From Azospirillum fermentarium (GTDB lineage Bacteria > Pseudomonadota > Alphaproteobacteria > Azospirillales > Azospirillaceae): 24,000 nt of DNA. The stretch covers positions 1,024,208 through 1,048,207 of the forward strand of contig NZ_JAOQNH010000002.1 of assembly GCF_025961205.1 (NCBI RefSeq), given 5' to 3'. Made by a program: the position numbers and the translations under genes. Below the pieces are notes generated by a model. It worked only from the letters and a program-made list of their open reading frames with translations, was not told the origin of the DNA and searched no databases. Below are positions 12,573-14,272 of the stretch, piece by piece (positions within the stretch are counted from its first letter, which is position 1; the number at the start of each line of letters is the position of its first letter).

Positions 12573-12616
12573 CAAAAACACCTCACGCAAATGGAAAAAC
12601 CCGGTGAGGGATGACG

Positions 12617-12634
12617 TTGCACACGCCATGCCAA
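12617..12634 (-). promoter_or_regulatory. Sigma-54 (-24/-12) promoter candidate P1 for ssuADCB
   Basis: The minus strand reads TTGGCATGGCGTGTGCAA, that is TGGCAtG-N4-gTGCA with the invariant GG and GC separated by exactly 10 nt. The consensus is TGGCACG-N4-TTGCW. The predicted start site near 12608 leaves a leader of about 36 nt before the ssuA ATG. Confidence 0.6.
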
Positions 12635-12710
12635 TGTAAAATTCATTCATTCATCGCCAAATTCATGTGGTTTTCGGGCAAAAAAGCACGCCGGCATTGT
12701 TTCGGGTGGT

Positions 12711-12749
12711 GACGGAGCAGCAGGGGCTGTTGCCGCCTGCTGCTCCGTC
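12711..12749. repeat. Perfect 14-bp-arm inverted repeat (gacggagcagcagg-N11-cctgctgctccgtc)
   Basis: I read this directly from the sequence. Its centre lies about 110 bp upstream of the P1 -12 element, so it could be an enhancer-binding-protein UAS. It could equally be a strong RNA hairpin within any transcript started at P2. Confidence 0.8.
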
Positions 12750-12964
12750 AACAGCATGGAAAGCCCGGCGCGTGAAATCCCGTCCCCACCCGCGCGGGGC
12801 CGGCGGCGGGACAGGGCCGGCAGAACCGGCTGTGTTTTGAAAAGCGGCGGTGGGGCCGCAGGGATGCGGGTCCGGCCCTCCCCGACCGGACCCGCGGCGG
12901 CGGCGGCACCCCCGGTACCACCGCCAAAGGACGGCCACGTGTCAGCGGCCTCCTCCCTGGGAAA

Positions 12965-12981
12965 AAGCACACACCGTGCCA
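12965..12981 (-). promoter_or_regulatory. Second sigma-54 (-24/-12)-like element P2, same orientation as P1
   Basis: The minus strand reads TGGCACGGTGTGTGCTT, that is TGGCACG-N4-gTGCT with GG-N10-GC spacing. It is near-identical to P1 (TGGCAyGGyGTGTGCw) and lies 347 nt upstream of it. No convincing ORF lies downstream. Confidence 0.45.
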
Positions 12982-13165
12982 GAGCCAAGCGCTTGATTCA
13001 CAAGAGTTCGCAAATCACCGTCCTGGGCATGGGGCAACACCCCCGCTGCCATGTGTTGCTGTAGAAACATAATATCAACAATTTTATGTGAATGAATTTT
13101 CTGGACTCACATATTCTATACCGTAATTATGGGGAAATGCCGATCCCAGGGGGTGAGAAAGACCG

Positions 13166-14272
13166 ATGATCGTTCAGGACAACCTGCGGAACGGTGAGGG
13201 GGTAACCGCCTTTTCCACCCGCCCCGCTGCCCGCCCGCCACACCGGGCCAGCGCCATGGTGTTCGAGGATCCGGCGTCCCGCGCGCTGCTGGTGCGGCTG
13301 AGGCAACTGGCCCCGTCGGGCGCCGACACGCTGATCGTCGGGGAAACCGGGACGGGCAAGGAGCTTGTGGCCCGTTTCCTCCACGACAACAGCCCGCGCG
13401 CCCGGCGCCCCTTCGTGGCGGTCAATTGCGGCGCCATCGCCGAGACGCTGGTGGATTCCGAACTGTTCGGCCATGAGAAGGGGGCCTTCACCGGCGCCAT
13501 GACCGCCGAGCCGGGGTGGTTCGAGGCCGCCGACGGCGGCACCCTGTTTCTGGACGAGATCGGCGAACTGCCGCTGCCGATGCAGGTCAAGCTGCTGCGC
13601 GTGCTGCAGGAGCGGGAGGTGGTGCGGGTGGGATCGCGCCGGCCCATTCCGGTGAACGTGCGCATCGTGGCGGCCACCAACGTGCGGCTGGACGATGCCG
13701 TCGCATCCGGGCGGTTCCGCCAGGATCTTTATTACCGCATCAAGGTGGCGGCGGTGCTGCTGCCCCCCTTGCGCGCGCGGCCCGGCGACATCCTGCCCCT
13801 GGCCGACCATTTCCTGTCGGACCTGGGCGCGCGCGGCGGGCGCCCCGGCCTGCGCCTGGCGCCGGAGGCGATGCAGGCGCTGCTGGACCACCCCTGGCCC
13901 GGCAACATCCGCGAGTTGGAGAATGTCATCCACAGCGCCCTGGTGACCGCCGCCGGGGATGTCATCACCCGCCGGGACGTGACCCTCGATCCTTTCCAGG
14001 ATGGGAGCAGGGGCGGGATTGCGGCTTCCGGCCTTGCCATCACCGTGCAGGACTCGCTGAAGGGGGTTCTGGGGCCGCTGTTCGACCAGGGGCACGGCAA
14101 CCTGTTCGGCGTCATCACCGACGCGGTGATCCGGTCGGCCTATGACTACTGCGGCGGCAATCAGATGCAGACGGCGCGCCTGCTGGGCATCAGCCGCAAC
14201 GTGCTGCGCGGCCATCTGTCGAAACTGGGACTGGTATCACCGCGAAGCCGGTTGTGCAAAAACGCCCCCTGA
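13166..14272 (+). CDS. Sigma-54-dependent transcriptional activator lacking an N-terminal sensory domain (SfnR-like)
   Basis: The AAA+ sigma-54 interaction domain starts about 35 aa from the N-terminus. Walker A is GETGTGKE, the GAFTGA loop is EKGAFTGA, and Walker B is LFLDEIGEL. An R-finger region and a C-terminal Fis-type HTH ([22 protein letters not shown]) are present. No REC, PAS or GAF domain is present. Confidence 0.85.

Follow-up and report, generated by a model that had tools for sequence, protein, structure and literature searches.

In Escherichia coli, the alkanesulfonate operon ssuEADCB is under the control of CysB and Cbl, and in Burkholderia cenocepacia the ssu genes are under that of SsuR; to our knowledge, every organism in which ssu regulation has been studied uses a LysR-type or other sigma-70-linked regulator. 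SfnR of Pseudomonas putida DS1 is reportedly a sigma-54-dependent activator of sfnFG and sfnA that is itself controlled by CysB, and it is said to be subject to negative autoregulation; Pseudomonas aeruginosa PAO1 reportedly has two such proteins, SfnR1 and SfnR2, with msuEDC and sfnG. Here we describe a 24,000-nt stretch of Azospirillum fermentarium DNA (contig NZ_JAOQNH010000002.1, positions 1,024,208 to 1,048,207; hereafter the window, to which all positions refer unless contig C3 or a locus with an L number is named) that carries an ssuADCB operon and, divergent from it, the gene of an SfnR-family activator. Judging from the sequence, it is likely that sigma-54 transcribes ssuADCB from a proximal promoter (P1), and probably from a distal one (P2) as well, through this sensor-less AAA+ activator encoded from 13166.

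What the window system has in common with SfnR of strain DS1 is a short activator of the NtrC family that lacks a sensor at its N-terminus, together with sigma-54 promoters, putative in the window, before genes for flavin-dependent organosulfur monooxygenases; DS1 SfnR moreover belongs to the sulfate-starvation response, as the window protein would. The two differ in that the target here is the canonical transporter-monooxygenase operon ssuADCB and not sfnFG, that the window gene is monocistronic and divergent whereas the DS1 gene is the last of sfnECR, and that two tandem promoters are found here and the sfnG-linked gene is another paralogue on C3. Strain PAO1 is similar in that its genome encodes two SfnR paralogues and that MsuD, an SsuD-type monooxygenase, is a product of one of their target operons, but its msu operon is without an ATP-binding cassette (ABC) importer and contains sfnR1, and the paralogues of the present genome would presumably divide their targets between them. 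With the ssu operons of E. coli and B. cenocepacia, the window has the structural genes in common and probably also the role, the scavenging of sulfonate sulfur when sulfate is scarce; sigma-70 promoters, LysR-type activators and ssuE are found there, in contrast to sigma-54-type promoters, an AAA+ activator and no ssuE here. PspF and HrpR/HrpS are likewise said to consist of AAA+ and helix-turn-helix (HTH) domains only, so that activity is set by the expression level or by a partner protein, but they belong to other clades and regulons, and nothing resembling PspA or HrpV is evident here as a partner.

SfnR-type sigma-54 control of sfnFG, sfnA and msuEDC is, according to the literature, already established, and the gain made here is incremental; control of ssuADCB by sigma-54 and an SfnR-type protein is a credible but unsurprising extension of known sulfur-starvation control. 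If it is true, the sigma-54 regulon of Azospirillum, which centres on nitrogen and motility, would gain sulfonate scavenging, rpoN together with one activator gene would offer a simple genetic handle, and the locus would exemplify natural promoter capture: an operon already equipped with an enhancer and a promoter would have been set behind another promoter of its own regulon. According to a 2026 transcriptome study of Bradyrhizobium, a role of sigma-54 in sulfonate transport had not previously been described in rhizobia, and our literature search returned no report of sigma-54 control of ssuADCB itself.

Putative promoters and activator of the ssuADCB operon

The window belongs to the second replicon of a high-GC genome of 5.9 Mb in four contigs. 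In it, ssuA, ssuD, ssuC and ssuB form a tight minus-strand operon with intergenic gaps of 22–38 nt, separated from the activator gene by a non-coding gap of 593 bp. The genes and the two promoter-like elements are as follows.

8676–9539, minus strand: ssuB, ABC ATPase (top NCBIfam match, aliphatic sulfonates ATP-binding protein, 340 bits)
9573–10343, minus strand: ssuC, permease (NF008470 SsuC, 362 bits against a cut-off of 347)
10366–11547, minus strand: ssuD, FMNH2-dependent alkanesulfonate monooxygenase (TIGR03565, 588 bits against 518; NF001939, 595 against 510)
11586–12572, minus strand: ssuA, periplasmic sulfonate-binding protein (NF008588, 322 bits against a cut-off of 299)
12618–12633, minus strand: P1, putative proximal sigma-54 -24/-12 promoter, TGGCATGGCGTGTGCA (pattern match; conserved in relatives)
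12966–12981, minus strand: P2, putative distal sigma-54 -24/-12 promoter, TGGCACGGTGTGTGCT (pattern match; conserved in the contigs L130 and L132 with a variable spacer)
13166–14272, plus strand: sensor-less SfnR-family sigma-54 enhancer-binding protein, 368 amino acids (domain search and tree)

P1 has its GG at 12631–12632 and its GC at 12619–12620 (GG-N10-GC), the latter 47 nt before the ssuA ATG at 12572, and P2, 348 bp upstream of P1, also points at ssuA. Both elements have GG and GC 10 nt apart within TGGCAC-N5-TTGCW-like blocks, and both read G, not T, before the GC of the -12 element. The pattern TGGCAY-N6-TGCW has two matches in the whole window against 0.22 expected from shuffled sequences, both of them intergenic and on the ssuA strand. 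Moreover, the genome has a single intact rpoN (with AID, CBD and DBD domains), and 41 of the 81 genome-wide matches to a slightly looser -24/-12 pattern fall in the small intergenic fraction, which indicates that canonical sigma-54 promoters are really used in this organism. A consensus scan for sigma-70-like promoters found none on the ssuA strand, its sole match facing the activator gene. An earlier note on this DNA had predicted a -24/-12 element with GG-N10-GC spacing upstream of ssuA, and such an element is indeed present as P1; the note named this one promoter, and a second promoter-like element is present as P2.

The activator comprises a Sigma54_activat domain at residues 32–196 (PF00158, 229 bits), AAA_lid_14 and HTH_8 (PF02954, 24 bits), and carries the motifs GETGTGKE (Walker A, residues 59–66), GAFTGA (106–111) and LFLDEIGE (Walker B, 127–134). 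Only 31 residues precede the ATPase domain, and the open reading frame (ORF) begins at the first start after a stop codon, so that it cannot be extended upstream and the N-terminal regulatory domain is truly absent. The domain search and the motif positions are thus in agreement with the divergent AAA+ protein with a GAFTGA loop, a Fis-type HTH and no N-terminal regulatory domain that the earlier note had described.

As to its family, the best homologues in a plasmid database were Burkholderia genes (59–60% identity) divergent from msuE-sfnG, an arrangement that we take to be the classical SfnR gene context. In a large protein collection, Azospirillum relatives (67–88% identity) came first and were followed by hundreds of proteins of 350–390 amino acids at about 60%, one of which, from Pseudomonas, is annotated SfnR; the top match of that Pseudomonas protein in the host genome is the window activator and the second the C3 gene, and the match is reciprocal best. 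A wide contig search with the activator was dominated by generic AAA+ activators and gave one family member only. In a maximum-likelihood tree, the SfnR family was split from the other activators of the genome with a support of 96/98, and within it an Azospirillum clade (92/95) fell into two subclades, one linked to ssu (93/94) and the other linked to msuE-sfnG and bearing a long C-terminal extension. The window gene adjoins ssuADCB and is linked neither to sfnFG nor to msuE-sfnG. On this evidence of sequence and gene order, the window activator is a lineage-specific SfnR-family paralogue and not an orthologue of the sfnG-linked SfnR. The earlier designation as SfnR-like therefore stands for the family, whereas the role of the sfnG-linked SfnR belongs to the second gene, on C3.

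Putative enhancers, conservation and the possible origin of P2

The intergenic region also contains the following elements, to which no strand is assigned unless stated.

12639–12672: AT-rich block between UAS1 and P1, including AAATTCATTCA at 12639–12649; partly conserved
12711–12754: putative upstream activating sequence 1 (UAS1), four CTGYTGCC/GGCARCAG-type half-sites; array kept in relatives, enriched
12866–12895, minus strand: GC-rich hairpin of 30 nt in the P2-to-P1 spacer; near-invariant across three divergent-type loci
12986–12998, minus strand: match to the integration host factor (IHF) consensus, WATCAANNNNTTR, just upstream of P2 (by-eye pattern match)
13033–13060: putative UAS2, GGCAACAC (13033–13040) and GTGTTGCT (13053–13060); half-site pattern and alignment
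13046–13073, plus strand: sigma-70-like promoter facing the activator gene (consensus scan)

The half-sites of UAS1 (12716–12723, 12727–12734, 12737–12744 and 12747–12754) have their centre some 100 bp before P1. That of UAS2 is some 67 bp before P2, and UAS2 overlaps the -35 of the sigma-70-like promoter of the activator gene. Eight promoters together give 21 occurrences of TGYTGC/GCARCA in 1040 nt, against a genome background of 0.25 per 130 nt, and the enrichment of half-sites at promoters is 10- to 20-fold. Similar half-sites lie upstream of the C3 msuE promoter and of a second C3 promoter, and the motif is also present at the Pseudomonas locus whose activator is annotated SfnR. These observations suggest that UAS1 and UAS2 may be enhancer sites to which the activator would bind. 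UAS1 includes a 14-bp hairpin at 12711–12749, which is unlikely to be an intrinsic terminator; since no T-run follows it and relatives without a promoter upstream of the array carry the array too, UAS1 is read as an enhancer at the DNA level and not as an RNA terminator.

The AT-rich block between UAS1 and P1 possibly has a role in DNA bending or IHF binding. Its AAATTCATTCA is the inverted partner of 13089–13099, the two being reverse-complement copies 450 bp apart; relatives show no change in the one by the activator gene, whereas that at 12639–12649 is only partly kept. These copies may be CysB or IHF sites. The IHF-like match upstream of P2 is present in L132 and in the congener G043, and has one mismatch in G053.

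Among 61 sampled congeners, a close SsuA was found in only 10. Three of these genomes (G015, G043 and G053) have an orthologue of the activator (about 63–70% identity) immediately upstream and co-directional, with a -24/-12 element between it and the operon.

G015: TGGCACGCCATGTGCA, then ssuADCB
G043: TGGCACGGCGTGTGCA, then ssuADCB
G053: TGGCCCGAACTGTGCA, then ssuEADCB

Two metagenomic or read-assembly contigs (L130 and L132) encode activators of 87–88% identity in the divergent layout of the window. The combination of activator, sigma-54 promoter and ssu(E)ADCB was accordingly found in five other genomes or contigs, two of them divergent and three co-directional. Of the six related loci, only G053 (TGGCC) departs from the TGGCA and TGCA of P1, whose spacers vary, and each of the five relatives has a UAS1-type array 80–100 bp before P1; the sequences of the array drift and the pattern stays, and that of G015 holds a perfect CTGTTGCC-CT-GGCAACAG palindrome. 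In a three-way alignment of the divergent-type intergenic regions (the host genome, G000, with L130 and L132; mean identity 82%), all variable positions of P1 (5/5) and P2 (4/4) fall outside the TGGCA and TGC blocks; the chance of such a pattern under uniform change is about 0.01 for P1 and about 0.04 for P2, a rough estimate for which three related sequences are a thin basis. Both the activator and a promoter of this kind are lacking in congeners with an SsuA of only about 50% identity. A class-wide search with SsuA gave 2 of 301 genomes at the chosen threshold, which is uninformative on the frequency of the pairing of sigma-54 with ssu.

In G043 and G053, a second sigma-54 promoter lies on the other side of the activator gene and drives an operon with genes for an Amidohydro_2 protein, an NMT1-type binding protein and an ABC permease. 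The surroundings of P2 are homologous to this divergent promoter, as seen in the ATGTTTC-ACAGCA and TGTTGCCCC blocks and an IHF-like ATCAA-N4-TT motif, and the amidohydrolase of the G043/G053 operon has no homologue in the host genome. On the simplest reading of these sequences, the sub-lineage would have lost the amidohydrolase operon, and ssuADCB with UAS1 and P1 would then have come to lie behind the orphaned promoter.

The spacer between P2 and P1 (330 nt) is non-coding and folds with unusual stability (z-score, -6.3). Its hairpin at 12866–12895 is identical in G000 and L130 and has three differences in L132; no second copy was found in the genome at up to 5 mismatches, so that a REP-type repeat was rejected on account of this uniqueness. 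A small gene in the spacer was also rejected, the third-position GC being 0.65–0.72 in all frames versus about 0.9 in real genes, and one relative having a 26-nt indel; so was a decayed ssuE, for which tblastn detected no similarity. As to a possible relic of the 3' end of an activator gene, the spacer gives a weak nucleotide alignment with G053 (60% over 201 nt), without a signal at the protein level, and an Rfam search of 12400–13300 returned sub-threshold hairpin noise only.

Reductase, proposed mechanism and rival explanations

No ssuE is present in the window, and the sole SsuE/MsuE homologue of the genome is msuE (C3:706175–706654), which bears out the statement of the earlier note that the reductase partner of SsuD is encoded elsewhere. 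On C3, msuE sits behind a consensus sigma-54 promoter, and the msuE-sfnG-sfnB operon adjoins the second SfnR paralogue; msuE and ssuADCB appear to belong to one sigma-54 sulfur regulon. In G053 (L129, about 10630–11190), an ssuE-type flavin mononucleotide (FMN) reductase gene (187 amino acids) is the first of the sigma-54-driven operon, between the promoter and ssuA. Since that operon carries ssuE, the window lineage either lost the gene or never gained it.

The second paralogue (P0001; 685 amino acids; G000 C3, L034:9946–12003, plus strand) is fused to an SsuA-like domain. It runs in frame past the HTH through a Pro/Ala linker into a domain that is 42% identical, without gaps, to mature SsuA and begins about where the SsuA signal peptide appears to end. 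About 30 such fusions of 620–740 amino acids occur in Azospirillum, Xanthobacter and others, most of them named 'aliphatic sulfonate ABC transporter substrate-binding protein'. With this domain, P0001 is a candidate for a sensor of sulfonate in the cytoplasm.

Immediately downstream of the gene for this fusion, L034:12104–14178 on C3 holds a sigma-54-like site (TGGCACTGATGTTGCA), which has TGTTGCC half-sites upstream and is followed by genes for an Amidohydro_2 protein and another SsuD-type monooxygenase (527 bits; cut-off, 510). The pairing of amidohydrolase and monooxygenase recurs beside SfnR-family genes.

In the mechanism that we propose, dimers of the window activator would bind the CTGYTGCC/GGCARCAG arrays, UAS1 for P1 and UAS2 for P2, and would assemble into an ATPase ring, whose GAFTGA loop would contact sigma-54 across bent AT-rich DNA and lead to opening of the promoter. 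Because the protein is without a sensor domain, control would most likely be exerted through its amount, from the sigma-70-type promoter in the AT-rich region by its gene, for which CysB acting on sfnR in Pseudomonas offers a comparison. Presumably, the activator may also repress its own gene, since UAS2 overlaps the -35 of the promoter of that gene. The flavin reductase for SsuD would be supplied in trans, most likely as MsuE from C3. What the sequences show directly are the elements and their conservation, the family to which the activator belongs and the presence of rpoN; from these we infer the binding, the sigma-54 dependence, the sulfur-starvation signal, the autoregulation and the reductase partner.

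The sigma-54/SfnR-type control of ssu put forward in the earlier note is supported, at the level of sequence comparison, by the intact rpoN, the SfnR clade, the conservation in five relatives and the absence of a rival sigma-70 promoter from the scan. Several points weigh against it. The -12 element is GTGC instead of the consensus TTGC, and P2 could be a recent relic instead of a working promoter. The placement in the SfnR family was made with annotated SfnR proteins and not with the characterised SfnR sequences and binding sites of P. putida and P. aeruginosa. The relatives are close kin and not independent, and the figures for conservation and enrichment are overstated. Finally, a consensus sigma-70 scan is weak for GC-rich alphaproteobacteria, and an extra LysR-dependent promoter might be present.

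It is possible, if somewhat doubtful, that only P1 functions and that P2 is an orphan of the amidohydrolase-ABC operon, firing weakly, if at all, into a non-coding leader of 384 nt; this would be in keeping with the homology of the P2 region to the G043/G053 divergent promoter, with the absence of the amidohydrolase operon from the genome, with the single promoter before ssu in the co-directional relatives and with the non-coding spacer. However, TGGCA and TGC of P2 are kept in the three divergent-type loci while four other positions vary, the half-sites and the IHF-like motif upstream of P2 are kept as well, and the near-invariant, unique hairpin in the spacer suggests constraint. A two-input circuit might consist of the tandem promoters, the 384-nt structured leader with its hairpin and the pair of paralogues, the fused one sensing sulfonate directly and acting at one promoter or in mixed rings with the sensor-less protein, and the leader adding a checkpoint at the RNA level or by a second regulator. 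We regard this scheme as unlikely.

It is conceivable that P1 and P2 in fact answer to the SsuA-like-fused paralogue on C3 as their signal-sensing activator, which would work alone or form mixed rings with the window protein like those of HrpR/HrpS, as both paralogues fall into one Azospirillum clade, TGTTGC-type half-sites are common to the promoters of both, and the window protein itself lacks a sensor; but the sensor-less gene is closely linked to ssu, and this conserved linkage speaks for a dedicated activator, hetero-oligomers being hypothetical, so that we consider this quite improbable. Least of all do we expect that the -24/-12 matches are unused, an unrecognised sigma-70 promoter under a LysR-type regulator (of the CysB, Cbl or SsuR type) driving ssu while the activator serves other genes. 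LysR-type control is, as noted above for E. coli and B. cenocepacia, the rule for ssu in studied organisms, consensus scans miss many alphaproteobacterial sigma-70 promoters, and AT-rich blocks of the kind bound by CysB are present here. Nevertheless, activator, sigma-54 promoter and ssu are conserved together over two gene orders and six loci with the critical promoter bases kept, and the congeners with the more distant SsuA (about 50% identity) lack the activator and the promoter alike, which makes such a misreading very improbable. Transcription of ssuADCB by sigma-54 through the sensor-less window activator is the reading that we prefer.

Gene calls and neighbouring genes

SsuA, SsuD and SsuC each exceed curated NCBIfam cut-offs, whereas the ssuB ORF is below its equivalog cut-off (340 versus 395 bits), though SsuB is its best NCBIfam match. 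SsuA, SsuD, SsuC and SsuB of an alkanesulfonate system are therefore encoded together, the last at a score below the cut-off, and no SsuE FMN reductase is encoded inside the operon in the window. The start codon of ssuB may be at 9539 or at 9545 (both are possible), and that of ssuD is at 11547; the ssuC ATG at 10343 carries a AAGGGAGG ribosome-binding site. The ssuA start at 12572 has GAGG upstream. A longer ssuA ORF that would cover the promoter was rejected as not real, because relatives keep the 12572 start and indels that break the frame occur just upstream of it.

The 138-nt gap 3' of ssuB (8540–8675) is AT-rich (TTGACATTTTAAATTCGTTATAACC) and contains no -24/-12 match. The operon downstream of ssuB codes for a binding protein, ABC components, a pyridoxal phosphate (PLP) enzyme, a HAD hydrolase and an Ldh_2 protein; its promoter is probably a separate one and not of the sigma-54 type. 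As a recurrent neighbour, a trypsin-like peptidase gene adjoins the activator/ssu cluster in G015 (L035, 3624–4586), and a similar one is located in the sulfur island of the window, at 1016–2395.

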